Assembly (NCBI GenBank): GCA_963514005.1
Contig: OY740802.1
Span: 15,128,001-15,192,000 of the forward strand
DNA length: 64,000 nt
From: Raja brachyura
Lineage: Eukaryota
Reading direction: 5' to 3'
A program made the position numbers and the translations under genes. Below the pieces are notes generated by a model, which ran no database searches, had not been told where the DNA came from, and saw only the letters and a program-made list of their open reading frames with translations. Positions 3,498 to 64,000 of the stretch are shown here, piece by piece (within the stretch, counting starts at the first letter, position 1; each line of letters opens with the position of its first letter).

Positions 3498-4770
3498 AGC
3501 CTGAAGAAGGGTCACGACCTGAAGCGTCACCCATTCCTTCCCACCAGAGATGCTGCCTGTCCCGCTGAGTTACTCCAGCATTTTGTGTCTACCAGGGACT
3601 AGACTTAGTGGACATACCTACCAACCCCCACAGTTATCTTGGCTACACCTCCTCCCACCCTGCCTCTTGCAAAGAGGCTATCCCCTACTCTCAATTCCTC
3701 TGTCTCTGCAACAGCTGCTCCCAAGAAGAGGCTTTCCATACAAGAACATCTAAGATTTCCTCATTCTTTAGAAAACCTGGTTTCCCTCCCAGTTGCCACA
3801 GATGGTTCCATCACCCATGTCTCTTCTGTATCCCGGAGTTCTGCACTCACTCCTTCTATCCCCAGAGACAACAAGGACAGAGTTCCTCTGGTCCTCTGAC
3901 ACCCAACCAGCCTCTGCATCCAACATATCATCCTCTGACATTTTCATCATCTCCAACGAGATCCCACCACTAATATCTTCCCAACGCCACCTTGTGTGGA
4001 GACTGCTTCCTCTGCAACTCCTTGGTTCACCCATCCCTTCCCACTCAAACCACCCCCTCCCCAGATATTTTTCCCTGCAACCAGAGGAGATGCAACACCT
4101 GTACTTATACCTCCTCCCTTGACTCCCTTCAGGGGTCCCAGCAGTCCTTCCAGGTGAGACAGAGATACACACACACCTCCTCTAACTTCATCTACTGCAT
4201 TCGGCGTTCCCGATGTGGGTTCCTATACATTGGTGACACCAAGCGTAGACCGTTTTGTTGAACACATGAGTTCGGACCGCCAAGACCTACTGGATCTTCC
4301 AGTTGGTAACCACTTTAACTCCCTTTCCCATTCCCATAATGACCTTTCTGTTCTGGGCCACCTCCATTGCTAGAATGAGGCCACATGCAAATTGGAGGAG
4401 CAGCACCTCATATTTCACTTGGGTAGCCTACACCCTAGCAGCATGAATGTTGGATGTTAATTTTTTTGTAACTTCTATCAACAGCTCCCTCTACACCCTC
4501 CTCCCTCCGGTAAAAGTCTCCCCAGTTTACAACTATGTATCCCGCTTGGGCTCACACTTGTCTCTAGCCCACAATTGGCCTATCAGGCAACCTTCTTGCC
4601 TGAGGTCAACCGGATTTGTCCTATTTTAATCTCTCTTTAAGCCCCCCACCCCCCGCCCATTCTCCTTACTACAATCAGTCTGAAGAAGGATCCTGATCCA
4701 AAATGTCACTTATCCATTTTTTCCAGAGATGGTGCCCGACCCATTGAGTTACTCCCGCATTTGGTGTCCC
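3498..4770 (+). mobile_element. Penelope-like retroelement 3' fragment (RT thumb, GIY-YIG endonuclease, pseudo-LTR with hammerhead motif), decayed
   Basis: Frames give HSYLGYTSSHPASCKEAIPYSQFL..EEAFHTRTS and FPCNQRRCNTC..SSNFIYCIRRSRCGFLYIGDTKR (GIY-YIG), with frameshifts. CTGAAGAAGG... units flank it at 3498 and 4676. Confidence 0.88.
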
Positions 4771-6589
4771 TTTCCCATGTTTTTGTATCCCATTTCCTCT
4801 TCATACCACAACCTCTGTATCTCCATGCCACAAATGGTGTAAACATACACCTTCCCTTTATAACCCATCTCTCATCAAAACCCGACATTTCGCCCATTTA
4901 TGCTTTGAATAACTAAGAACTCCCAGTTTCCAAAATGCTTAAAGGAGCAGATTAAAATCAGAAGCAAGGGGGAGAGACAGCACATCCTGAGAAGCTAAAT
5001 TCCACAACATGTTTTTAAGAAGCTACGTAATATATTTAATTCCAGCTGCATTTGTTTTAACATACCAGAGGTCTCACTGAGTATGATTGCTTTACCAAGA
5101 ACTCTAGAAAGCCTAAAGAACTGCTGGAGCATTTTGATGACCTTATCTCTCTCCTAAATGCTGCTGAGCATGAGTGTGGAGCTGCCTGGACCAACATCAG
5201 AAGATAAAACTTATCCAGACTTTACGCCTGAACTACCTTTGCACTCATAGAAAGAATAACCTGCCTTGAACTGATTGGAAATGTAAATGCAGAGATAAAG
5301 CACAATGTATAAAACATATTCTTCACCACATCTCAGTCCATGTCTTTGACAGATTAATGTCCACAAAATTACTTCCAATACCTCATCGACCTCTATATTG
5401 TTTTTTTACCATTAGCCATCACATTGCCTTGACAAGGGAGGACGATTTGCTCCAGTCAAAACAGTCTGCAGCATTGACATCATCTGTTGTGAAGTGAAGG
5501 AGACTGTGGACCATGAAGAACATTTCTCAATACATTGTTCAGAAGTTATATGCAGTGACTATCAATGGAGTGCCATTTCTTCATGAAGAATAGTAGAGGT
5601 AATGTGAAGGATCATCATCTTTATAATTTCCTCTGTCCCATGCAGTATGAACAGTCTATTGACTCTCAGGAAAGAAAACTGCCTTGAACTAAAGGGATTT
5701 GAATCTCTGAATGGTGGTCTAGTGTTTGTTTGCAAGTCTCCACAGAAAATAGAGTTGGAGAGCACACACATGGATTATATTAAATTCAATTCTTCTGCAT
5801 TTTCAATTACTAAATATTCTGGAAAAACAGTAAAAGGCGATAAATTCAAATTATTTTAGTTCTGAACCATGATTAATTTTCTGGTATAAAAAAGGTAAAT
5901 TCATAATTTAGAGCATAGGGTTTAGAGTCGCCTTTTATTCCATTTCTACTCTGTGTCATTACCCTTTCTCAAAAAACCTGCTGCATCTTTGCTTTCATGT
6001 ATTATTTGCCCAGTAAATGGCAGGGCTTATTAATTTCAGACTAAGTATCATTGAAAATTATTTATTATTGTATCAGTATTAGAGTTACTGTGGTGTACAG
6101 TTCCTAACTAGGAACTGGGTTAACTGAGGGAAATAAGGTGCTTCACATCAATCCATGTAATGATAAATGATTCAGCAGTGCAGAAACACTAAAACGTTAG
6201 CTTGACTTTCAAAATACTTTCTTTACAAAATCATCTGCAAAACTCGATTTGTTTTACTTTAGAACCACAAAGAGGATCATGAAGCTATGGAGAAGATGGT
6301 AAGTTAATTAGCTACTGTAAATTATCCCTAGAGTGCAAGTGAGTTGATGGGAATGTAAGAAGAATTTTTCTTAAAAGCCATTATTGTAGATGGGCGTTTG
6401 ATGGTCAGTGCAGACTTAAAGGGTCGGAAGATTAGTTTTCTTGCTGTATCAATCTATGAATTGCAACTAAGGTTTCAGTTGACAAATCCCTTGACACCAA
6501 AATCAGCATTGAAACATTCAATATTGTGGATGGCCTTTATAGGTACACAAAATCCAACAGTTGCCAGTGTGACACTCAACATTCACAAG

Positions 6590-14748: not shown

Positions 14749-16544
14749 CTAATAGAATCAACCATACAGTTTTCACTATATGTCCTCTTGCTCACAGAAG
14801 TTCTATTGGAACTAACTGTGAAGTAGGGAGCCAAAGTTCCATTATCCCTTTTCAAGAAAGGTTGGTCCACTGCGGACAGGAAAAGCAACCAGATATTCAT
14901 TAAGTAATTGGATTAAATAATTATCAATGAACTCAAACATTTAATCAGGAAGTGTAAGTTAGAAAGTTTAATTCAATATGAAATAAACTATAGAAAGCAA
15001 CATAGAGAGAAGGAAATGATTACATTGAGTATTTAAATTTACATTAAAAATCGTCTATGTAATTTCTGATATTTGTTCGTTTTAACAGTAAATAACATTC
15101 AGAGGAGTTAGATTTTGGTCTTGCAAACATTCAATTGCAATGGTCTGCAGCTTAAGTTTTCAAAAATATAGACATTGTACTGTGAGAAAATTACCTATAC
15201 TGGAGTTGACAAGTCGTTATCCTTTCAAATGAGTTTCATGGCTCTTCATAACAAGACTGTGGCGAACCTTATATTTGAACGCTAACCCTTTCTTCGAGAT
15301 ACCATGATGGTTGAGTTCTGCACTCGACTCAAGGAGCAGGAACTTCAGTAGTACCCTCCTCACCTGGAGTTTTTATTGTGCTAATGCAGTTGATATAACT
15401 CACTGTTTAATATCTGCTTAAACATTGTAACACCAATAACCCCACCATTATTTCTGCTGGAAAATAATACTCATTGAATAAGTATGTGTAGGTTTACACA
15501 TACATATTCTTGACATAAAAATGCTTTGTTAGCAAGTAGAAAGAGAATTTTGAGTTATTTTAATGGAGCTTCGTAACACCATATCAAAATCCTTCTTCAA
15601 TTATTTAATACAACAATGAGAAATTGCATTAGATAATTATCAAAGTGAACTAGCTTTCAAAGTAAATCAAATCAGCTTTCCAATATATGTCAAGAAAATA
15701 TGTTGAATGATTTTATGGAGTAATTCCAATAGCAATCAGTGCTACATTGGTATGGAATGTAACTTTGGTTCCACCCAATTATATTGATGCAAGTGACTGT
15801 ATTCTTTCAATATTCCACACAGGTAAAGAGCTGGAATATCAATATTTCTCAATACAATTATAATATGTTATCAGATTAAAAAAACCTTTACACAACCACG
15901 TTTCATAACCATATTTTCCTATTTTACATGCTAATTATATTACATATTAAATATCAAGATTTTTTCATGTGCTAGCAAAAATAAAAGCAATTGTAAGCTG
16001 TAGATTCTGGCTTTAATACCCCATCATCTGAAAGTTGGGTGAGATTGGGAAGAAATGTTTAACTTATTTCAAAATCTATCTGAAAGGACAACAGGAGAGG
16101 TTGGCTACATTTTCTCTGGACAGTTAATGGACCAGAGAAAGAACATTGTATGAAATACTGCGGTGGAAACAAAATATGATTATCCTGTTTATAAAGAAAA
16201 TGGATAAATACTTGAAATATAAACAATATGAGAACGTTAGAGGAATGGAACTAAGTGAATAGGCCTTTGAGGGAAAGCCTGTAACCACAATATGCCAAAT
16301 GACTTCCTTTTATACAATAACTTTCTATGACTATCTTGTAAGGGTATTTATCTACAACTATAAGTCTTAAGACAGAAAATTCAAGGAATCTACATTAATT
16401 ACTAATTCTGTCATGTTTTCATTATATTTTTAATTTTATAAATACAATAACATTACTGTAACGTTAGAGTAATGACTGCAAACACACAGTTTCTTTAGAT
16501 TAAAGAACCAAATCCAAGTAAATTAATAGAAAAGAGCATGAGAA

Positions 16545-17290
16545 ATTGTACACAAAGTGCGGGAATAACTCAACGGTTCAGGCCGAACATTTTGGGTTGG
16601 GACCTTTCTTCAGACTGATTGCAGTGATGGGTGGAGCAGAAAGAGAGGTGGGGACAGGCAGACACAACCTGACAAGTGATAGGTGGATACAGGTGAGGGG
16701 GAAGGGGGTTGATTGCCGAAAACAGGCATGAGAAAAAAGGAGATAAGGATAGAAGAGGTACCTGTTGTGATGCCAGAGGAAGGAATATAGGTGGAGGTGA
16801 TGGGGAGGGAGGGGAGAAATGGGTGCAAATCCCAATGGGGCACAGGGAGGAGGGGGGTGGGAGGGGAGGAGAAAGAGTAGTTCATTTATAGGTTAGTTAC
16901 TCAAATTAGAGAATTTAATGTACATTTCATTGGGCTGTAAACTATCCAAGTGAAATATGAGGTGCTGTTCCTCTCCCCCCCCCCCCACCCCCCCCCCCCC
17001 AGCTTCCCTGTGCTCCACCTGGATTTGCATCCATTGACACCCTACCAACTCCCCCAGCCCCATCGACCACTGGCTTCACAATTTGCACATCTTATATTCT
17101 TATCTCCTTATCTCACAAATTTTGTCTTTTCATCTTTGGTCTTTCTCCATCCATCCGCCAATCAGCCCTCCCTCTCCCCCTCCACATGTATCATCCCCAC
17201 TACAATTAGCCTGAAGAAGGTCCAGATCTAAAATGTCTCCTGTGTCTTTTATGTCTTTTTTATAAAGCAGCATCTGCAGTTCCTCCAGGA
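16545..17290. mobile_element. Penelope-like element 3' ends in inverted arrangement
   Basis: A minus-strand pseudo-LTR and ORF end (16545-16975, ...ccaagtgaaatatgaggtgctgttcctc) is followed by a plus-strand pseudo-LTR ending in agcctgaagaaggtcc...catctgcagttcc. Matches the element at 4390-4770. Confidence 0.75.
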
Positions 17291-22972: not shown

Positions 22973-23364
22973 ATTACATGGAGTTGAACAGACTTTGTGC
23001 AAGGGGGCCATAAAAATGAGCTTGGATAGATCAACACAATAATGGCAAGGGAGCTATTTACAATTAATTCATGTTAAATTAGTAAAGAGAATTGCTGTTG
23101 TAAAATTAGAAACAAAATAAGAGCAGAGAAAGGTGTCAGAGAAGCTAAGTAACAAACAGCATAAGATTTGGCAGAAATGGGTAGGAACAGAATCCATGGC
23201 AAGATGTCAGAAGGAAACTGTATTTATTTAGATAACATGTAGAAATACACTATGAGAGGTATTGAATTGGATTGTTGGCAAAAAATGATCAACCAGGGGG
23301 TTACAACCTGTGGCATCATTAGAACATGACAAGGTGACAAGTCAACTGGCATGTTGGTAGCGGA

Positions 23365-23455
23365 CTGATACAAAATGCTGGAGTAACTCAGCGGGGCAGG
23401 CAGCATCTCTGGATAGGAATGGGTGACGTTTTCGGGTCGGACCCTTCTTCAGAAT
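23365..23455 (-). repeat. Penelope-derived hammerhead unit
   Basis: caaaatgctggagtaactcagcggggcaggcagcatctctgg...gtgacgttttcgggtcggacccttcttcag. Confidence 0.85.
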
Positions 23456-25433
23456 GTCTATCTATGTTGGTGGCAGAGATTGGAAGGCTGCAATTAATTA
23501 AAAATTAAGCTAATGGAAACCATAATCCTTCAAGAGGCATCGAATGCAGCGTGTATTCAGTTTGTATTGGTTATTAACTAAAAAGCCAAGATAATGGACA
23601 ATGAGACTAACGTTTTCCATATCCATGAACTGTAATTACATTAATGGTTCATTTGGAATGAGAACATCAGTTGAGATAGACCTTGCTAAATGGGAGTGGC
23701 ATTCTGTTTGGATAGGATGATGATCAGGACATCATTCCAGTGGTATTGGTACCATTCTTGCTAATGGGTGTTTTTTAACGGGAGCATACAGTTAGAATAG
23801 AAGCCATCCTCAGAGACAGTGCTAGGAGGTAATGATTTGTGTGGTTGAAAATTCTGGAATGGGGCTAATAAACAACAAGCACGACGAGCACCTACAGCAT
23901 CTGATTAATGATGAAGAGATGTGGGTAACATCAAATATGGAATGATGCCTCCCAAAAATGACAACTTGTGTCTGTGGGTCTATGCACGGAGGCACAATGC
24001 TGCTTTGGCCACTGCATTTATGTGTGTTGCAGAAAGGAAAGCTAAAGTTAGGCCAAATAAAAGACAAGGGAGAAAACTGCATCACCACCAAACTGTCTTA
24101 AAACTGTGGATCAAACAAAAATGCCCCTCTTCTTTAATTCTACATCACCTCAATTAAACACTCATCACATATTGTTGCTCAGGCTCTGGTGCTAATGCAC
24201 CATCATAGGAACATGAGACAAAGTCGCATTGTGCATCCGATACAAATATATTGAGTAAACAACCAAAGAGTTAAGAGATTGTTAATGGTAGGAGACAGCA
24301 ACAAGTGCAGAGTTACACGCCAGACTAGACAGTTAGTCACAATGAGGTGAACCAAAATGAGGCTAGCAGTTAGTCAATTAGTTGCATTAGTTGCTGTATT
24401 GACTGGTTGCACAAGCATATATGGGATGAGGATTGGATGTCCGAACCAGTAACTATTGACCAGGGTAACTATAGAATGAGAATCTGACATAAGGAAAGGA
24501 TAAATTTAACAGTTGATTAATTATGTGCTAAACACACAAACTGTAAAAATGAAACATGGATGTTAATCATTGAGCACGTTTGGCATGAGGAAATATGAAT
24601 CAATGTGAAACACCATATAAAGTAATATGATAAAAGGGAGCCAATATGGGAGAAAAATAAGGATTTGGATGTAACATTAAAGTACTAAGAGGCTGTATTT
24701 TCAGTCGTGCAATACCCAAAGACGTGGCTGTTGCAATAACAAAATGGTGTTCAGATCAAACAAATGGTAATTCCTTCATAACTTATTTTTATAACAAGGT
24801 TAATAAAGAAAACTCTGGAGCACAAAGCTCATGCTGAATCTGACTTTGCAATGAGGTATGCAATTTTAAAACACCTTGATTCCAAATTAATGAAACCAGC
24901 CAAACAATCAAACCGGTGTAGGAAGGAACGGCAGATATTGGTTTAAACCGAAGATAGACACAAAAATCTACAGTAACTCAAATATAGTGGATGTGAAATT
25001 CTCCTTTACTTTGTATAGCTAATATAAACCAACCGCTTCCTAAATACAGGATACAACTATAATATTATAACTGGTAGAGCACAGGAGCCTTTGTCAACTG
25101 CGAGGGCTGGTATTTTGGGAATTACTAGACCAGCTCTGAAAGAAATGATTGGGTTTCAACCTGGCAGCTTGCCAAGCTCGAGTATATCTGCTGCTTGGCG
25201 CCTTTCAGTGTTATCAGTTATTTGATTTTCGCTCAACTGCAGTAGTTTACTGCAATTGTATTTATAGAAGAACTCACAGATTAAAAATTGTATTGATTAT
25301 GACAAGTAAAGAGATTTAAGGACAATTAGAAGTACATTAGAATTTCAAATCGTCACTTCGGTCCTGACCAGTTAGAGCAATGGATTCAAGCACAAGACAT
25401 TATCAAACGGAAGCGACATCCTTTCAACCTTAA

Positions 25434-26126
25434 GCCCCTGTCCCACTTACGTGTCCTTGGCTCGCTAATTACGCAACCTCCTGGTCGCGTTGAGGCGCGA
25501 CGGTACCACGAAGGTCGCGCATGACTTCATACGTTTGCACAGCCGCCTGGAGCGCATGACGTCATTTGAAGTTAGACACAAAATGCTGGAGTAACTCATC
25601 AGGACTGGCAGCATCTCTGGAGAGAAGGAATGGGTGACGTTTCGTGTCGAGACTCTTCTTCAGTCTGAAAGAAGGGTCTTGACCCAAAACGTCACCCATT
25701 CCTTCTCTCCAGTGGCGCTGCCGGTCCCGCTGAGTTACTCCTGCATTTTGTGTCTATCTTCAATTTTCTTGGCCCCGCTCTGGGAGGAGAAGTGGGGGAG
25801 GACGAGATCCGCAACAGCCGTGAGTCCCAGGCCGAGTTCGGCGATCGTTTGCCTGCTTCTGCTGCTGTTCGAGATGAGACATTGCGTCGCACCAGGGTCT
25901 TGGGCCTGTCCCACTTTGGCCATCAATTACGCGACAGGCCGTTGGCGTGCGAAGATTTCGTTCGCTACAAAATTTCAGAGCGCGGCACGATACCGCGCAC
26001 AACTACATACCCCTCTGCGCTTCTCCGTGGAACCGGTCCCGCACGGCCACACGATGCCCGTGCGCCTCAACGCGATGACAAGGTTGCGTAATTTGCGTGC
26101 CAAGGACACGTAAGTGGGACAGGCCC
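25434..26126. mobile_element. Composite MITE with ~65-bp TIRs, flanked by TTAA
   Basis: TTAA|gcccctgtcccacttacgtgtccttggctcgctaattacgcaacc... and ...ggttgcgtaatttgcgtgccaaggacacgtaagtgggacaggccc|TTAA. An inverted hammerhead pair lies at 25572-25760 and an extra left-end copy at 25902. Confidence 0.9.
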
Positions 26127-29121: not shown

Positions 29122-29250
29122 GTCTGAAGAAGGGTCTCGACCCGAAACGTCACCTATTCCTTCGCTCCATAGATGCTGCCTCACCCGCTGAGTTTCTCTG
29201 GCATTTTTGTCTACCTTCGATTTTTCCAGCATCTGCAGTTCTTTCTTAAA
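29122..29250 (+). repeat. Penelope-derived hammerhead unit, intact core
   Basis: gtCTGAAGAaGGGTctcgACCCGAAACGTCacc...cagcatctgcagttctttcttaaac. Confidence 0.9.
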
Positions 29251-30111
29251 CAAAACGATTGTAGTAGTATTTTGTTGATTGTATAGGCTGCAAAGTTCCA
29301 GACGATACTTGAGTGATTGTCCCTTTTATCGTTATTATGTCCCTGCGTAAAGTTCAACCACCCCAGTATACAGTAGTACCTGCATGTGTATACTTACATG
29401 TATATCTTAGACCAATATGGTCAATATATAAATAACAGTGTTCAATTGATCAAACTCCAAAATAATGCATCCCAGCTAAGTCCCAATTACTCTGGTGGAA
29501 AATTCTTTAAAAAAGCAAAGAAGTTCAAATATGGGTCGGAAAAAATACCAATCAACATCAACTAGGTCACTATAAAAAGAATGAACCAAATTAATTGTAT
29601 CTGTAATCTGCCGACATGTTAAACAGACAGAAAATATGTCCCTGCATACCTATCCTACATCACCATTTATGAGTAAGATAATGCTGAGAACATTTTGCAA
29701 GCATCATGAGACTCCCATCCTGACCCAAAACGTCATCTAACTTTCTCCAGAGATGCTGCTTGACCTGCTGAGATACTCCAGCAGTTTTTGTTTTTCAGGA
29801 TATTCCTAATTAGACTTGAAGAAGGGTGTTATGTGGACTCCTGAGAAATGTTGATTGATGTCATGATTTCTTCTGATAAACCTGAAGATGCCAACATCTA
29901 ACAAGAAATGTAATACTTGGAGATGGATTGTTTGAATTGAAACATAATGGAATATTACAGACTGGAATATGACACATGTCTTAAATGTGCATTTAACCAC
30001 ATTTCTCTTGATTATTACTGTTAGTTTCTTCTTTAAAGAGTCACACTGGGTTGAGCAAAATGATATCTAACATGCATAACCTTCCTTTGGCATCTGATAA
30101 TAATTCATTTA

Positions 30112-30390: not shown

Positions 30391-30817
30391 GGCTTACCCC
30401 TTAAATGACTTAACCCTTATTTCTAACCTTATTATCTGCCGAGTAAAATCAGGTCTCTAAGTAGGTGTTATCTAGCTATTGATTGGAAGTCATTTGTCAG
30501 CAGACCATGATGTCACATTGTTGCTGCCCCTGACTAACACAAATCCAGAAGCTGTAAATTATTCTTAAAGACTTCTTCCCAGAGATTAAGACGTCGAAAA
30601 ATGGGTGACATGCAGGATTATTGGAAAAACAAATGAGCAGATCACTTTGCATTGAACTTTCAAGATGTGGAGAGACTATTTCATCCAAGATATATGCATC
30701 AGTGCTTGCTTTAGATTGGAGCAATCTAATTTCCCTATGCCGATGGACATCTTTAACATTGAGATGTACCTGAATACAGATAGAAAAACAGTTGACTGAG
30801 ACCGTCCACGATAATTG

Positions 30818-31050
30818 TACAGGAAGGAACTGCAGAAGCTGGTTTAAACCGAAGATAGACACAAAATGCTGGAATAACTCAGCGTGACAGGCAGCATCTC
30901 TGGAGAGAAAGAATGGGTGACGTTTCGGGTCAAGACCCTCCTTTAGACTTCATCAGTCTGAAGAAGGGTCTCAATCCGAAACGTCACCCATTCCTTCTCT
31001 CCAGAAATGCTGCCCGTCCTGCTGAGTTATTCCAGCATTTTGTGTCCATC
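30818..31050. repeat. Head-to-head inverted pair of Penelope hammerhead units (~95-bp arms)
   Basis: 30856-30948 is the reverse complement of 30955-31050. Confidence 0.9.
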
Positions 31051-32714
31051 TACAGTAATATTCGTTTTGGTCAAGTGTGATTGAATTCTCATGTAAACAG
31101 ATCCCTACTGACCAAGGGTTTAATTATACTGCGATGGTAAATCGTAAAATTTTGTTAATTAGATGACTTGAAGCATAGATTTTAAATAATTAGTCATAAA
31201 ATTAGAGGAGCATTCTTTTCATTTAGAGTATAATAGGCATATGGTTCTCATGGCCTCTAGGGGGTGAGAGAGGCAGACAACCTCAATCACATTCAAAACA
31301 TCTTCTGCTGTGCCTCTGAACAGCTGCAACCTGCAGAGTCAATGACATATAGTGAGATGTTATGACCAGGATATGTAGCTCTCCACGAGAATAGGTTCAG
31401 TCGGCCAAATGGCCAACATCTATATTCTACGTTTCCTATGATTCTATAACAGGGCCAGACCTTTAAGTGACCAGGACATGAGAATCTCAGGATTTTCCAT
31501 GTGCTCTCCTCCAGGTTTCCGAAACATTACAGGAGGCAAGACCAAAAATACATCATCAAACATGATTTTTTTAATCATTCCCAAATGTATGAGCTGAATA
31601 ATATTAGTAAATCCCACCAATTGTCAACTTAATTCAATAAGAGGACAAAGACTAAGTTTTTCTGTCTGTATTAAGGTTCATCTAAATTTAAAAAATTGTC
31701 AAAGGGCATAGGAAAATGAGATTATTCCAATCTAAAGCAAGCACTGAGAAGATACCTTGGATCCCTGTTTGGGGATGTCAGGCTGGGCTGCTACATGGCA
31801 TGATCTGAACACCATCTCCTTCTCCAACAGAAGTCCCAGACTCTCAAGTTACTCCACGGTGAGTAGACCTGGACCCAGTTATGGGTAGATTTCTATTAGG
31901 AGTGCACCTTTGCTCATCCATGTTAACTGATCCCAGTAAACATATTAGAGTCAGTAATACACACACATAAAAACTGGAACTTCCCGCTGCCTTAACGTTT
32001 GCTGGTGCATTGAACAAGTTATCTTTGCATTCACACTTTAACATAAATCACACCAATCTCCCGAAGTAAAAGAGTAAAAAGTGCTAAGACTTCCCACCAC
32101 AGTTAAAAAGCCCCTCAAATGGTGAAATTTTTTGCAGCAATTATCTTAATCAAATGAATTTATTTTGGCTTTAGAGGGACAGAGATCTCGTTTGGGGTTA
32201 ACCCTTGCCATGATGTTACTTTGAAACAAATTGCATGCCACAGGTACGCCTTTATTCATTATTGCTGAGATAACCTGGTATTATTAACAAAACACTGGAG
32301 GGAATGGGTGGTCCATATAGTTTGACAAATGCCAGCTCAATCTAGACAACTGATGCCAACCAAATGTTCTAGTAAATAAGATAATGCCTCTCAATTCGCA
32401 CAGTCCACCATCCAAAGAAACAATTATGTTCAACTTCTGCACAATTCCCATCCTTAAAATATTCAGTACTTTTCCAGTCGAGTGGGTTGACAGCCATGAT
32501 ATTGAGGATTTCATAAAAATTAATTCAAACAATATATGCTAGGAGTTAGCACTCTGGATTTCCAGAAAAATGGATGCTGGATCCCAAAGGATCAGTTAAG
32601 CAGCATTAAAAATAAATATCCATAAATCCAGCATTGCTCATCTAACTATCAAAAACATATATTCAGTCAGCCAGTACACATGATATGTTGGAAAACCTAC
32701 ACTACAGCCAATGG

Positions 32715-41530: not shown

Positions 41531-41894
41531 CCAGTGGTATGAGCTCCTTCTGTTTCAGTTCCATGGAGTTAACTGTTGTCCCACCCAAAGCAAAGTAGTG
41601 TCAATACTGGTGGACAGATGCCAATATTGATAGCGCATTATGATTGCAATTAGCTACTAATAAAAATAGTACCCAGGAAGGGAGGTACAATTTACAGATA
41701 CTGTATGTGGGTTGGAGGAGGTGGGATGCATGCAAATCCTTGGGACAGAAAGAAGGGGCACAATTTGGGAGCTCCAAGGTATTGTTGTTGAACTAAATGT
41801 ACCAATACACCTCCAGAAGCTCTGAAACATTTTGAGGAATATTAATCTCAGTCTACATCTTTTCTTCCGCCATATATTACAACAGTACCTTGAT

Positions 41895-42280
41895 CAGCTG
41901 GCCTGGGCAAGTGGGCTGAGGAACAGATAATGGAGTTTAATGCAGATAAGTGCAAGGAGTTGCATTTTGGGAAGTCAAGCCTGGCCAGGAACAATGGTAG
42001 GACCTTGCGGTGTATTGTGGAATTGAGGGGGAAGGGAGAGGGGTGATGTGGGGTGATGTGGGGTATGTCTGGGAATAAAGGTATGTAGTTTCCTGAAAGT
42101 GGTGCCCTCGATAGATAGTGATAAAGAAGACTTTTGGTACATTGGCTTTCATCATGAATGGTAATGTATATAAATCGGGACGTTATGTTACAACTGTACA
42201 AGACGTTGGTGGGGCCGCATTTTGAGCATCATGTTCAGTTTTGCTCTCCGTACTTTAGGAAGGATGTCATTATGCTGGAA
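41895..42280 (+). mobile_element. CR1 LINE ORF2 fragment
   Basis: LGKWAEEQIMEFNADKCKELHFGKS...MLQLYKTLVGPHFEHHVQFCSPYFRKDVIMLE. Confidence 0.85.
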
Positions 42281-42319
42281 ATAAGTTTCTGTGTTGTTTG
42301 ACTCAATTACTCTATTTAA

Positions 42320-42448
42320 GTCTGAAGAAGGGTCTCGACCCGAAACGTCGCCTATCTCCTTCACTCCTTAGATGCTGCTGCACCCGCTGAGTTTCTCCAG
42401 CTTTTTGTGTAACCCTCGATTCTCCAGCATCTGCAGTTCCTTCTTTAA
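42320..42448 (+). mobile_element. 129-bp hammerhead-bearing Penelope-derived insertion with a 12-bp TSD
   Basis: TACTCTATTTAA occurs at 42308-42319 and 42449-42460, flanking GTCTGAAGAAGGGTCTCGACCCGAAACGTCGCC...CTGCAGTTCCTTCTTTAA. Confidence 0.92.
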
Positions 42449-44644
42449 TACTCTATTTAACCAGTGTGCCGGATGCCTCAATAACACTGCAATGCAATTT
42501 AAATTAGGATACTGCACCTCTGAGGTCAGGTAAATCAAAGGAAACGCCTTGACTACCTGACGTAGCCTTAGTAAGTCAAACATATGAGTCCACTGACATC
42601 ATGGGTTTTATCCTCTGTCTGCAGAGGGTCCCCTGGCTGGGGGAAGGATAATTTACATTTAGCATTAGTTTGGCAAGACATCCAGCTTTTCCATTCTTCA
42701 GCTCTGAAATTAGTGTCCGGCTATCTGTTTTTTTTTTCCTACAATGAGCTTCTTAATAAAAGAGAAGTAGTATTTGAAATAAATTGTGGCCTTTAGATTA
42801 CACTTTTTAATGGGATCAGAAGGAAAATTCATCCCCTCACCATTTCAGAGGGCACAATAACCTTGTCAAGGAAACATTTAATGCTGATGTAACGTCCATT
42901 GGATTTAATCTAGTTACCTAGTTATCTGTTTAGATTCTATATACAAAAATATTTTTAATGTTTATTGGTTAATGTGCAACTACTAAATTCCTGCATCTTG
43001 CTTAAAGTTTAATTTGTGGACATGATCTATGCTCGCCAAGTACTACATGATAGAACTGGGGAATTATATGCTTTGCAGAATTTTTATTTCCAAATGCACT
43101 GGCATCAAGAAATCAAAGATTAAATGCAGTATAGATACCCGTTTCCTCAGTTTGAGGCAATACTATGCCTTCACCCCTGCTGCCTATATACAATGACATT
43201 TCTTTATCCTTCCCGGAAGGACAATGTCAATTCAATCCAGATGTGGTGAATATTTTAGCCACTTGAATCTGAGTTCATGTTTATCAAACAGGATATTTAG
43301 CAGTGCAGCCACTGGCATTAAGGTAACTTAAAAATTATCCCGTTACAATTAATTTCTGCATTATGAATATATTTCTTGCTACTGTACACAGCAGTGCATG
43401 GTATATTCACTGTGCCACCTAGGCGGGTGCCTTGTTCCAGCATCCTGTTATCATTTCTGCACGATTTTGCATCAAAAATATTTGAGCACTCGTATGTGGA
43501 AATGCTAAACTTAGATACCAACAATAGATTGGACATAAATTGACATTGTTGGGCAAATAGGATTAATGTGTTCGGCTTCATTTTTTTTTAAAGAATATAA
43601 ATTTGGAAGCAATACCCAGGGGTTTTGATGTAGTTTTATCACACAAAGTCACTGCTGTCACTGTGGAGACACATTGAAACAATGCCACTGATTTTGTGCT
43701 GACGTCTGGTGTATGAACTGAAAGAGGACAGATGTGAATGGAAAAGTGCGAAGAATCACATTCACTTCAGGTCATCCCAATTAGAACCAAGTGCAATCTC
43801 AATGGAACAGTTTTCCTCCTCACATTTATCAATATGAGTAGGAACAGATTTCCTGAGTGTAGTTAATCAATGGCACGGAGAGAGGTTTTTGCCCAGACTG
43901 CAGCAATAGAGTGAATATGAAATGAATTATCTCTTGCAATTTAATCTCCTGATCATAGGTCACCATTTACACCTGTCTCTACCATAGGTGGCAATTCTAA
44001 ATCACCAAAGTACTTAAAACTCCAGATAATTATAATAAAAAATTAGCAGAGTAATTGTTTTGAAAAATTCTATTCAGTAAATTCTTTATTTACTCCAAGT
44101 CAGTTAGAGCCAGGTAAATCGGGAATCTCTTAGAATTAATGAGTGATCTGGAAATGTCCTCAGAGACAGAGATACTTTACAAGTGCATGGCTTAAACCTG
44201 TGATACTCTTTGCCCCTTATTTTGGATATACACCCCAGCTCATTCTATCAGTTAAGGTTTTAAAGGCCCTGACAGGGATTTTTCCAGTGGTGGTTTTGCA
44301 ATCTATTCCTCCACCGAGTATTTGGCGGGAGGGAGTGCAGCAGGGAGGTCCCATATCCAATGGCATCATTGGGCCTCTTACAAAAGTGCTGTCTCCCTAA
44401 TCTGGAAAACCAAGATGAAACGCTTGGACACTGTCCCGATATCATATTCTCGGAACATCCTCCAAATGACCTCAAACAAAAAAGCAATGCAAAATACATA
44501 AATCATGCATCCAACAAATGGATGAGCCATCAAGCAGAGGTGCTCTTAAAATATCAGATGTATTTCAGCTAGTTTGACTCCCAGTTTTGCATGGAGCGCA
44601 ACCTCTAAAGGAAATTTACTTGCTTCAGTCTACAGGTAGAGGAC

Positions 44645-54073: not shown

Positions 54074-54937
54074 TCAGTCAAACAGAATATGCTTCAGTTG
54101 TGAAAAACTTCTTTCTACCCCAGCTGAGGTCACTGGTGCATACCTGAAACAAGCTACAAACTCTACATTCATGTTGATATCTTGTGCATTACAACTACCT
54201 TTGAGAACATTAGCTATGTTTTGTATTTCTGCAAGATCTTTGTTAGCTAAAATCACTCTCTCACATTTTCCTTCTATGTCTTTACCTACATCGCCAGGAA
54301 CTTTAAGTACAAAGTACAGCAAGTGAAGATGTAAACAATAAGTAAACAATGTAAACAACTGAGTCTTTGACTTCTCCAATACTTCCGATGTCAAGAAATA
54401 ATCCTTTGATGGTCGACCTGCCTCCAGTGTACCAATGACCACATTGGCAACATATCGCCCCACAACATCGGTTGTCTCGATATTTTGTTGCGTGCAACTT
54501 CATCTCTAATTTTCTGCACAACAATGTTGAAGTTTCTGTCAACATAATTTTTCCGTAATAATGACTCGCTCGATATGTTCCTCTGTGTATTTCTCTACAA
54601 AACCTCTGAGAGATTTGTTTTCCAATTTCCACAGTGGAATTCCAGCATCAATGAATGCTTTGCCCAGATCACTCGAAAACTCAGATTTGCGACTGGAGCC
54701 AGCAGTAAATGTTGTGAGGAGACAAGCTTGCGTATTTCCTACCGTCAGTTTCTCTGCCGTCGACTTGTGTTTAGCTGTCTGTACATGCTGGGAGACAAAA
54801 TATTTCTTCTCATGATTCACTGCTTTCTCACACGCTTTGCAAAACAGCACACAGTTGTCTGTAGAGAATATATCACTCCCGTACACTCTCACCAAATCGT
54901 TCCGTTTTTTACAAGGCGTTGGCTAGACTTTAGGCGT
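54074..54937 (-). pseudogene. CGGBP-like hAT transposase remnant
   Basis: N-terminal BED-type finger LFCKACEKAVNHEKKYFVSQHVQTAKH, FSSDLGKAFIDAGIPLWKLENKSLRGFVEKY, catalytic-region ETTDVVGRYVANVVIG, and C-terminal FRYAPVTSAGVERSFSQLKHIL. It carries frameshifts, stops, large deletions and an apparent start mutated to ACG. Confidence 0.85.
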
Positions 54938-54954
54938 TTTGACGCTTGCGGGGG

Positions 54955-55060
54955 TAGATTCTACAGGAACGGGGATGCAGATCTCTACAGGCAGGCCAAG
55001 TATAAGCTGAGAAGAGGAATCAGAGCTGCCAAGGAAAGGTACTCTGAGAAGTTTGAAAAG
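54955..55060 (+). mobile_element. Rex1/Babar LINE internal fragment inside the hAT element
   Basis: YRNGDADLYRQAKYKLRRGIRAAKERYSEKFE resembles the Rex/Babar endonuclease-RT linker. Confidence 0.7.
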
Positions 55061-56529
55061 ACTAGATCCTTCCCCACGCACCTCTCTCCAATCACCACTT
55101 CACACCCACTTACAGCCGGGTCCCGGTGGTGTAAATTTTCTTATAAGTTACGTTAAAATGGCAAAAAAAGGCTGATTTAGGCACTCAATCGCGAAAAAGG
55201 CATTATCTTCCTGAAATCATCAAAAAAGGTATGAAAAGGCACATGGCATTTATGGCAAAATCCCAGCACTATTTATAACATTTAAATAAAGGGCTAAGAT
55301 GCTATAAAAATGAACTTTGCTCTTTAGATGATATTTTCCTCTTTTCTGTGGAAATTCATAACTTTTTGCCTTCAAACAATATACAAGAAAAATGGTACCA
55401 AACTAATATAATTCCCGCAGTCTATCTAGAAATGAAACATGCTGTACAGCACCTTCATTTACAGCCTGAGACTGTATAGCCAAAACACTGTATTGACTTT
55501 AAAATTCATTACATCTTTACAATGGTTTAGTTCACAGACTGTGACCTGTCCTCTTCAATGTACAAAATGTACCATCAACTCTTCCCATAGTTTCCACTTT
55601 GACATCAATGAGATAGCAATACACCTATGGGAATATAACTGAGGATAGTTATGTTCATGGTAGGAAGCAGCCAGGCAAGCTCTGAACAGTGAAAACAATT
55701 GTTTTCGCAGAAGCTGTCACTCTGGGATTCCCTTTCATACTTTAAGAATCAGAGAGTCATACAACACAGAAACAGGCCCTTTAGCCCACCACGTCAATGC
55801 CAAACCTTTTGCCCATCTCCACTGGTCCCACTACCCTGCGACGGGACAGTATCCTTTACCCTTTATAGACCTATCATTTAAAGTACCAAAAAATTCATAA
55901 AATGCACTAATCTGAAAGTGAACATTATTTCAATAAAGCTGAGATCATGTGGGATCCATCTCTGAGAAGCATAGCAAGATTTTCAGTTTGTTGAAAAGTC
56001 ACCAAATATAAATCGTTTCTCCCTCCACTGAGATGCAGCTTGACCTACTCAGTGTTTCCTGCATTTACAGTTTTTACATTTATTTATGACCCAAGTAATG
56101 CCAGGATTTCAGTTTTGTAAATTCAACAATAGTGAATTATTGTGGACATTTATTTAGCCCTCTTCCTTATGGACTATTTTATGCATGGATAAACCTAACT
56201 CAAAGGTGTATCTCCTTATCTCCTGTGCACCCAATGCAGATGATTGTTAGGTTTCTACATACAAAGGAGGTCTAACTTTGGCATCTCTGATTCAAGAAGA
56301 GACCATGTAACTATCAGAATAGGTGAACCAGTACAGTTTGGACCTGCTTCCCAGACAACATATCTCGTATTCCATTACACACCAAACAATGCAGACTGCT
56401 GACACCAAAACAAGCCTGCAGTACAGAGATGAAGATGTCCTCATTTAAAGGAAGCTTGACCTACATGGATTAATTGACAGGGACTTCAAGTTCCTTACCA
56501 ACTTGCAAGCAGGTCCTCCTTTGAGCGAT

Positions 56530-60722: not shown

Positions 60723-61482
60723 GTGAGCAAGGAGAAATTGGCACAGATGAGATCTGGCCTGGGGTATAGCAGCTATGATCATAATGAATAGTGAGACAGG
60801 CTTGTGAGGACTGCTCTAGCTCCTGTTTTCTCATGTTCTTAATGTGCGCAATATCACTTAAAAAAGATTAAAAAATGCTAACCCAAGACTAATCTTATAA
60901 TAGGTATCTTAACAAGTATTTCAGCTGTACACTGTGATCTGAAAAGTTAACAGTGATCTTATCATATATTTTTTGGTAATTAAAAATTGTGACAAAAGAA
61001 AGTCACTACTAATTAATGGTTTAATTGGCTCAATTATCCTTTGGTTCACTATGTAGGTATGTAGATTGCTCATTAAAATATAATTTCTGAATAAGTTGTG
61101 CTCTGTGATGTGTAAGAAAAGGTTTGCTTTATTCATCCAGCAAAGATTTTGTCAGATTGAAAATAAAAAGAGAAAATGCTGGATATACTCAGCAGGTCAG
61201 GCAGCGTTTGCCAACAAGGAACTCTGACAAATGGTTTTGACCTATTTCGCTTTCCAGACGCTGCTTGACCTGCAGGGTGTTCCCACTGTGTTCTTGTTTT
61301 TATTTCAGATTTTCAGCATCTGCAGCTATTAGATTTTGTCAGATTGTGCTTGACTAAGGTGGAAAGTCAGAGGAATTAAAGGAGATTCAAGCACAACTCT
61401 ACATAAAAACTGCTGCATAAAAAAATGCTGGCTTTTCACTTCTAAAACAAACAAAAATACTTACTTTAAGTTTTAATTCAGA

Positions 61483-62517: not shown

Positions 62518-62610
62518 AATCTGAAGAAGGGTCTTGACACGAACCATCACCCATTCCTTGTCTCCAGTAATGCTGTCTGGAGTTACTCCAGCATTTTGTG
62601 TCCATCTTAA
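62518..62610 (+). repeat. Penelope-derived hammerhead unit (decayed)
   Basis: atctgaagaagggtcttgacacgaaccatcacc...gagttactccagcattttgtgtc. Confidence 0.8.
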
Positions 62611-63402
62611 GCGAGATAACAAGTCAGCAGTCTTGTTAGGTATTGTAGCATTGAACAATCGTATAAACATGAAAAACAAATTTTCAGCAGAGGTCAGCAA
62701 ATTGAAGTTCCAAGCCATGCAATTCTTTCATTTCCCGTTAATAGGGTCCCCTTGCTCCCATTTAGTTTCTGCATCTCCTTTCTGATTTCCTGCTACATGG
62801 CAAAATTGCATTCCTTCGAACTTCAGGAAAGATTTTAACTGTGCATAAGGGGCTGGAGGTGGGGGTCCCCTCAAGGTTAGAAGTACTTAGATTTTGTGAT
62901 GTTACCCCTGGGATTAACAGATTGGTTTGCAAGTATTCTGTGACACTGCAGATCATCATTCTTCATTGTAGAGATTGAGATTTTCGTTGACAGTGAGTCC
63001 ACTGTTCAAATACTCGCGATTCCTACTGTTATAACATTGTACAATAGTTTTACAAAGTTATCTTGTGATGGTTTTGAAATTAAGTTGTAGGATTTTTAGA
63101 TTTTCTTGAAGTTTAATTTTCTCTGCTGTGTTAGGAATTTATTGACTCTTTTTTTTCTTCCTTAAGCAGATTAATGACTTTGTTAAACTGCAGAGAAAGA
63201 GTTAATCAGTCGAATCTGTTCTCTCATGGTATAATTTCAAGTCTTTGGTTTGTGTGCTTTAGTAAACGTGATCTCATCTCCTATATATTTCATCTACAAT
63301 TTTAGAAAATGCAAATACGAATCACAAAGAATGAGTTTCCCATTTGCCATTCCACAGATAAATTACCAGAAATTGTGTGTGCGAGAGGATTAGAGAATGT
63401 AA

Positions 63403-63850
63403 ACAAGGAACTGCAGATGCAGGCTTACAAAAAAAAAGACACAACAAGCTGGTGTAACACCGGTTCAGGCAGCATCTATGAAGAACATGGATAGATGACG
63501 TTTCGGATCAGGACCCTTCAGCCTGATTGTCGGAGGGGGGATGGGGGGAGTGAGAAAGAAAACTAGAAGAGAGGAGAGTAAGGATAAAACTCCAAGGTTG
63601 TTACAGGTGAGGTTTTTTTGATGAGCTGATAATTGCACAAATGCCAGAGATGAAAAAAAGAAACAGGTGTGAGACAAAAGGATTGAAGAGTTGTGAATTG
63701 TGAAGCTAGAGGAAAGAATGTAGGTTGAGAGGGGGGGGGGGAGGGGTGAATTAGGTGCGAGTCCAGGTGGGGCACAGGGGAAGGAGGTGGAAGAATGAGG
63801 AGGTGGAAGGGAGAAGAAGGGAGTGGGAAGAGTTATGTAGTTACAAGAGG
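63403..63850 (-). mobile_element. Penelope-like pseudo-LTR/3' end with hammerhead motif
   Basis: aaggaactgcagatgc...gatgacgtttcggatcaggacccttcagcc followed by the purine-rich segment also seen at 16620-16900. Confidence 0.78.
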
Positions 63851-64000
63851 ACTAGTTTGTCAAACAGAAATAAAAATATAAAGGCTAGAAAAACTCAGCT
63901 GCTCAGGCAGCATCTGTGCGGAAAGAGAAAATTGTAACATTTCAGATTGAAAATTCAAGAATAGAACCAGGATTTATTGTTATTAATTTAATCACTGAAA

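Follow-up and report, generated by a model that had tools for sequence, protein, structure and literature searches.

The 129-bp unit at 42320-42448 of the window (the whole 64-kb stretch of DNA that we analysed) is, as judged from its sequence, a solo pseudo-LTR with its tail that belongs to a Penelope-like retroelement, probably of Neptune type. What we found is mostly explained by known Penelope biology. The solo pseudo-LTR (pLTR), the tail, the duplication, the inverted arm and the minimal hammerhead are all parts that are already known: the available text of PMC3846280 describes solo pLTRs, one-armed tails and 8-10-bp duplications, an optional tail of 30-40 nt is defined in the corresponding parts of PMC8557442 and PMC11167929, and PMC4209133, to the extent available, describes many single and opposite-strand minimal hammerheads. 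In a curation guide, the pLTR is a second copy that is usually truncated (PMC8969392, in part). The fixed 5' edge of the solos is the one undescribed feature. Our literature search, which ran mostly outside subscription papers, found neither a description of a fixed 5' edge in solo pLTRs nor a paper that treats this family in cartilaginous fish.

The unit and its immediate surroundings contain the following features.

42308..42319, + strand: left target-site duplication, 12 bp, whose last A could equally be the element's first base
42320..42448, + strand: putative pseudo-LTR module, solo and tailed (unit nt 1-129); it belongs to subfamily C and is most like the copy at 29122
42449..42460, + strand: right target-site duplication, 12 bp
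42418..42448, + strand: optional tail of ~30 nt, which separates the 3' ends of the short form (nt 95-105) from those of the long form (nt 123-135)
42370..42432, + strand: conserved 8-bp helix, 42370-77 with 42425-32, around a small hairpin; its two strands lie on either side of the short 3' end

Identical 12-mers at 42308-42319 and 42449-42460 directly flank the 129 bp of the unit. Exact flank matches of at least 12 nt occurred at 2 of 5000 random sites when pairs of flanks (35x35 nt) were compared, and the perfect 12-bp repeat that the initial annotation had read as a target-site duplication is confirmed. The target of the insertion is 61% AT. The 8-bp helix, which we infer to be a candidate start structure for reverse transcription, has a z of -2.3, with 3 of 200 shuffles as good and a covariation term near zero. 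An empty site was sought in 4 of 20 sequencing runs, where the output was dominated by repeats and coverage was missing from part of the right flank in every run; none of the 15 joints listed spans the unit. Upstream of the insertion, a decayed LINE RT C-terminus, which we take to be CR1/L2-like from its motifs, occupies 41890-42283 and stops 25 nt before the duplication.

How typical is this unit of its family? A profile search of the window recovered 33 family pieces. Of these, 30 were kept; the others were two weak rows, with E values of 0.19 and 0.68, and the half of the 17204 copy that holds its tail. Family matches at E<0.01 cover 2,866 nt, or 4.5% of the window. The 3' ends fall into two groups ~30 nt apart, with 16 of 30 at nt 94-105 and 10 of 30 at nt 123-135 (4 are shorter), and these two groups indicate that the tail is optional. 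The initial annotation had named solo copies at 3498, 14509, 21862, 26802, 29122 and 62520, all of which do start within a few nucleotides of the hammerhead core, as it had stated. It had also proposed a discrete element of 129 bp, a description that does not hold: five of the six named copies are tailless, with their 3' end at about unit nt 95-104, and only the copy at 29122 has the long form, while other copies are inverted pairs, start internally or run through into the 3' UTR.

Further copies illustrate this variety.

29122..29253, + strand: a second direct solo of the long form, also in subfamily C and 88% alike to the 42320 unit
23354..23474 (outer ends approximate), - strand: short solo that has an inverted arm of 9 nt and is flanked by a 10/11 repeat
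30814..31060: head-to-head pair in which both arms start at the boundary, one with a tail
25565..25766: head-to-head pair centred on a short palindrome at the boundary
61144..61346: older related module, a head-to-head pair (61160-61330) with a perfect 16-bp duplication (61144-59 and 61331-46)

The window holds five young head-to-head pairs, and in four of the five the tail is on one arm only. Inversion junctions fall on palindromes, either at the edge (25663 and 37699) or in helix III of the hammerhead (52088/52091); in the 52088/52091 pair, the helix III palindrome on which the junction falls adjoins the predicted cut site. A tiny inverted arm is clear at 23454 (score 9.5; 6 of 2000 random sites reach at least 9) and marginal at 62519 (score 7). 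We considered such tiny arms as a general rule and rejected it, as seven other solos failed against the random score. Among 26 rows we found no tandem array of the unit, the arrangement by which non-LTR retrozymes are recognised. Within the unit there were no Pol III A or B boxes at one mismatch to the consensus, no tRNA and no Rfam match. Elsewhere in the window, ORF pieces that resemble a transposase, presumably of hAT type by their motifs, lie at 54074-55156 (-).

The 5' edge is the real end of the solos and not a mere artefact of the query. Four of the 30 rows run through upstream into the Penelope 3' UTR, at 4678, 16615(-), 17210 and 63522(-). Of the 26 copies that do not run through, 15 have their start at the edge, within a span of 11 nt (for uniform starts over 79 positions, binomial p is 2e-7), and the non-random 5' boundary of the initial annotation is thus supported. 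The remaining 11 start inside the unit, some of them being older forms that are poorly fitted by the profile, and the edge is spread over ~11 nt and not set at one base. No upstream sequence is common to nine solos that were compared (the best score in 36 pairs was 9, a value that 15 of 1000 random pairs reach). Moreover, adjacent flanking repeats accompany 6 of 12 direct solos versus 10 of 400 random sites (best 3'-flank match within 1 kb, ending at most 14 nt from the edge), a comparison that is somewhat optimistic because the copy ends were set by hand after the ends had been viewed. Between repeat and unit, 4 of the 9 full solos carry 9-13 extra nt, one of which (23454) is clearly a tiny inverted arm. 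The 5' edge is common to subfamilies A, B and C and to the older form. A search for 5' transduction gave no distant duplications above the null, and the 12-mer of the 4678 copy lies inside the element. Three readings suit the bases at the edge: an initiator-like motif, a splice acceptor or a short palindrome. The initiator consensus is a short and common motif, and the Drosophila downstream promoter motif, compared by eye, does not fit at the required spacing from the edge.

To what kind of element does the unit belong? Two features near the left end of the window bear on this.

3542..4475, + strand: decayed, 5'-truncated Penelope-like ORF with RT thumb, CX4CxxC linker and GIY-YIG, of Neptune/Nematis type; homology is clear from about 3617
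4640..4775, + strand: C-rich end of the 3' UTR running into the module, the autonomous setting, subfamily B

Since the C-rich tract and the ORF precede the module at 4678, we read the unit as the end module of the element, that is, its pseudo-LTR. [quoted passage not shown] The ORF matches P0008 (tblastn E 1e-40), its long relatives carry RVT_1 and GIY-YIG, and its nearest named proteins come from stingray, skate and shark, so that a cartilaginous fish is the most likely host. The mobilisation by a Penelope RT with GIY-YIG that the initial annotation had suggested is supported. A CX2-5CxxC linker before a C-terminal GIY-YIG marks the Neptune or Nematis type in the available text of PMC8557442. 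Such a linker is present at 3542..4475, where it would also suit Nematis, and the window is without the RT core. Pfam gave no match in the window fragments, and a protein search found no proteins that carry the translated module. We considered the copy at 3498 as the 5' pLTR of the 3617-4775 element and rejected it, as this copy is 74% identical to the 4678 module, belongs to another subfamily and has its own 9/10 flanking repeat. The 3498 copy, which abuts the truncated Penelope RT/endonuclease fragment, is probably an insertion of its own. Two composite arrangements were also seen. At 16541-17290 a long head-to-head pair of truncated Penelope copies is joined near 16975-17010, its left arm extending to the end of the ORF and its right arm bearing the tail. 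At 63399-63949 (-) an older module directly precedes a fragment of 3' UTR and a tailed B-type module, forming a partial tandem of two subfamilies.

The subfamilies differ in their link to this element. None of the 19 arms of A and C (0/14 events) runs through, versus 4 of 7 arms of B (3/6 events), a difference with a Fisher p of about 0.02 when calculated by hand on events. The window contains no A/C copies with run-through, and the autonomous parent of A and C was not found there. A tree of 22 rows places three run-through rows and three solos in group B (88/85; no starred branch), and the end branches of A and C tend to be shorter. In all 4 run-through copies the edge is preceded by a pyrimidine-rich tract (78-85% in 40 nt; 50-55% C) that ends in CAG or TAG at the edge.

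The initial annotation had placed the 5' end of the unit at the ribozyme itself, and indeed the first base of the unit is the first base of the short helix I of a predicted hammerhead, whose cut would fall 30 nt inside the unit.

42320..42351, + strand: predicted minimal type I hammerhead motif, from the sequence and pair counts on 21 rows, with the architecture given in the available text of PMC4209133
42320-21 with 42350-51, + strand: hammerhead helix I, 2 bp
42322-28, + strand: hammerhead core, followed by an extra A (42329), helix II (42330-41) and GAAA (42342-45)
42345-48, + strand: palindromic helix III, dimer only; predicted cut after 42349

The core, the extra base, helix II and the palindromic helix III are all present in the unit. 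Across the 21 hammerhead rows (12 window copies and 9 metagenome motifs), pairing is 78% overall versus at most 35% in slid controls, and helix II is 95% paired with two-sided change in 3 of 5 pairs. Helix I has 2 contiguous pairs in the 42320 unit and at most 3 among the 12 copies, short of the 4-5 bp of a minimal hammerhead of Penelope-like elements (PLEs); in most of the metagenome motifs it is roughly 3-6 bp by eye. The forced hammerhead fold has -4.2 kcal/mol versus -7.6 kcal/mol for an alternative fold, and Rfam gave no hammerhead match to the unit at the gathering threshold or at E<=10. The motif resembles the minimal PLE hammerheads of PMC4209133, as far as that source is available, in its extra base before helix II, its palindromic helix III and its many single or opposite-strand copies, and it shares a 2-bp helix I with the D. 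virilis Penelope hammerhead described there, but it differs from them in its helix II of 4-5 bp.

Similar motifs occur in other DNA. Scans for close relatives found 0 in viral contigs and 0 in a first metagenome scan. With a looser core pattern we obtained 14 loci, 13 from metagenomes and 1 from a prokaryote, none of which is similar to the fish module outside the core; the 9 motifs that came from 8 of these 14 loci entered the pair counts only. The metagenome contigs L001, L002, L003, L006, L009, L010 and L012 have nearly the same core and mostly a longer, covarying helix I. In L003 a Penelope-like ORF lies just upstream of the core, and L006 holds an inverted pair. On a bacterial MAG contig (L014:4001-4026) the core pattern comes with a plausible helix I and is possibly a bacterial type I hammerhead.

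Matches to the stretch are abundant in four public sequencing runs from four organisms, one of which may be the source of this DNA, with 60,463-65,861 contigs per run. Among the matches listed, the top upstream loose ends are at 42319 (681-810 per run) and 42320 (398-478 per run). The position of this peak is forced by where the window's copy ends, and it is therefore evidence of run-through and abundance, not of a hotspot. At 42319 the consensus of the loose ends is C-rich 3' UTR in all four runs (agreement 0.34-0.36). The loose ends before 42320 have an A/T-rich consensus that ends in G, again in all four runs (agreement 0.31). A G-rich start would lengthen helix I to about 4 bp, and could represent a subfamily or untemplated bases. 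Separately, the best-supported joints among those listed go back 37-38 nt at 42319-42356 and describe short tandem repeats of the hammerhead alone, in 4-15 contigs per run (X1, X3, X7 and X10). The repeat junction lies 3-8 nt past the cut site, and in X7 the edge is often preceded by one G, perhaps copied from a cap.

How would solos with one 5' edge and two 3' ends arise? The best guide is the anole Poseidon protein, which, in the available text of PMC11167929, cuts and extends both target strands in AT-rich DNA. In that element two internal priming sites define the tail, and the first 172 nt of the ORF are needed; product length in vitro tracked the template's 5' end and was unchanged by ribozyme mutants, and no reads ending at the ribozyme cut site are reported there. 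By analogy, the unit would have been inserted by target-primed reverse transcription, from an RNA that we infer to begin at the base just before the hammerhead, at the initiator-like motif. Priming in the upstream module would leave only 100-135 nt to copy before run-off at the RNA 5' end, comparable to strong-stop DNA. Priming on the second target strand could then add an inverted arm of 0-135 nt, an arm that the 42320 unit does not have. Solos that lack the downstream binding region would mostly be dead ends, and the ribozyme would mark the edge by its position only, the edge not being made by its cutting. We consider the chances even that priming at two internal sites, followed by run-off at the RNA 5' end at the initiator-like motif, explains the fixed start. 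In its favor are the duplication, the identity with the end module of the element, the two 3' ends, the optional inverted arms and the 5' hotspot. Against it are the absence of a run-through copy from subfamilies A and C, the origin of the biochemistry in another clade (Poseidon), the brevity and frequency of the initiator consensus, whose bases suit other readings too, and the spread of the edge over ~11 nt. We suggest, tentatively, that transcription of Neptune in cartilaginous fish may start at the first base of the hammerhead and that the 100-135-nt solos may be abortive strong-stop products. In D. virilis, Penelope starts at 371 and has an intron at 416-491 (PMC2377424), the 3' end of which maps to the 5' end of the 2-bp helix I (PMC4209133, in the text available). 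This start is about 120 nt upstream of the intron end and helix I and so provides no precedent for a start at the edge base.

Other explanations of the edge must be weighed against run-off. A rather doubtful one is the main idea of the initial annotation, that A and C form a dedicated non-autonomous, SINE-like lineage. Its short master loci, made of the module and some sequence just downstream, would have their transcription start at the boundary and depend on a Neptune protein in trans for their copying; the step at which the RNA starts here is common to this explanation and to our preferred one. It would account for the run into the 3' UTR of 4/7 B arms and 0/19 A/C arms, for run-through tree rows that all lie in B, for the shorter A/C end branches and for the about 60,000 contigs per run that match the stretch, and non-autonomous Penelope relatives (MRC1; retrozymes) are known from the literature available. 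However, the edge is common to A, B, C and the older form, and B is tied to the ORF. Moreover, the copies end at priming sites and hence are without the downstream region that the anole protein needs, according to the available account, there are no Pol III boxes, and the picture comes from one 64-kb window with weak tree support. Could the edge be a 3' splice site instead, where a pyrimidine tract and a YAG immediately precede the hammerhead and the cDNA stops at or just past the junction after a very short or variable first exon? We regard this as unlikely. The tract and CAG or TAG in all 4 run-through copies are what a splice acceptor looks like, the D. virilis intron ends at the corresponding base in the available text of PMC4209133, and the four solos with 9-13 extra nt could be read in the same way; splicing could also supply the missing strand of a helix I that is 2 bp here versus roughly 3-6 bp in most invertebrate-type relatives. 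Yet the nine solos have no upstream exon in common, and no distant duplications mark longer 5' exons. C makes up most of the tract (50-55%), an inverted arm and not an exon accounts for the clearest of the extra pieces, and described Penelope copies retain the intron (PMC2377424).

For the RT the edge is beyond the fold, and it is 30 nt upstream of where the cut is predicted, so that self-cleavage and arrest both misfit. The arrest of RT at the folded ribozyme, which the initial annotation had offered, would take the form of a stall or release on a longer RNA, caused by the fold, a bound protein or the edge palindrome. We find this improbable. It is favoured by inversion junctions whose palindromes lie at the edge (25663, 37699) or within helix III (52088/52091), and by the protein-assisted anole ribozyme (PMC11167929, in part), but the RT would meet the 3' side of the fold first, and the ends are past the fold instead of in front of it. 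As a fold the motif is weak (-4.2 versus -7.6 kcal/mol), solos with no or a tiny inverted arm have the same edge, and the anole RT read through its own ribozyme in vitro, with a product that ignored ribozyme mutants, in the same available text. It is very improbable that a self-cleaved or circular RNA of ~130 nt was the template, as in a retrozyme. Such a template would suit the conserved hammerhead core and the rare 37-38-nt tandem repeats of the motif in all four runs, but cutting would leave ends after unit nt 30, where no copy in the window starts, and there is no loose-end peak at the cut site among the matches listed, which are biased to copies alike to the 42320 unit. Tandem arrays of the unit are absent from the window, helix I has 2 bp, and the available part of PMC11167929 has no anole reads at the cut site. 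The retrozyme- or SINE-like label of the initial annotation is not supported, given the lack of a tandem array, of an end at the cut site and of Pol III boxes, and a non-canonical hammerhead. Plain random 5' truncation, with an edge that merely reflects where the query starts, is hardly tenable. It draws on the 11 of 26 copies that start inside the unit, on a query and profile that extend only 8 nt upstream and on the forced position of the loose-end peak, but it is countered by solos without common upstream sequence and by the 6 of 12 with flanking repeats that end at most 14 nt from the edge.

The family can be compared with further known systems. Like EN+ Penelope-like elements of Neptune type (PMC3846280 and PMC8557442, each in part), it has a module that ends an RT + CX4CxxC + GIY-YIG element, an optional one-arm tail of ~30 nt, head-to-head pairs, 8-16-bp duplications and a palindrome at the 5' end of the module. 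However, these papers, in the text available, describe variable 5' truncation and few solos, whereas here module-only copies are the majority and have one 5' edge. PAc (Poseidon, Anolis carolinensis; PMC11167929, in part) likewise has two 3' ends about 30 nt apart, at ~90 and ~120 nt past helix II, an AT-rich target and ends away from the ribozyme cut site, but it belongs to another clade, and the available text reports no fixed genomic 5' edge. Non-LTR retrozymes, as described in the available parts of PMC7229834 and bioRxiv 10.64898/2026.07.22.740005, are also non-coding, hammerhead-bearing kin of PLE pLTRs, and dispersed monomers exist among them. They are defined by tandem units, type I ribozymes and circular RNA, in contrast to the minimal motif and the monomers with duplications, without arrays, that we found.

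What would a fixed edge mean for Penelope biology? The regeneration of the pseudo-LTR and the role of the hammerhead are open questions in the available text of PMC11167929 and in PMC2377424. A fixed 5' edge together with two known priming sites predicts a template that begins just before the ribozyme and is uncut by it. If this is true, a template jump from the run-off end would be the source of full copies and pseudo-LTRs, and the first-strand intermediate of Penelope would be preserved in the genome as a very large fossil record. In the boldest form, the younger A/C lineage would be a ribozyme-headed analogue of a SINE that uses the run-off route alone, and the 5' copy would stay uncuttable through the loss of most of helix I, caused by the start site or by a splice. 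As the family makes up 4.5% of the window, its annotation matters for shark, skate and ray genomes.
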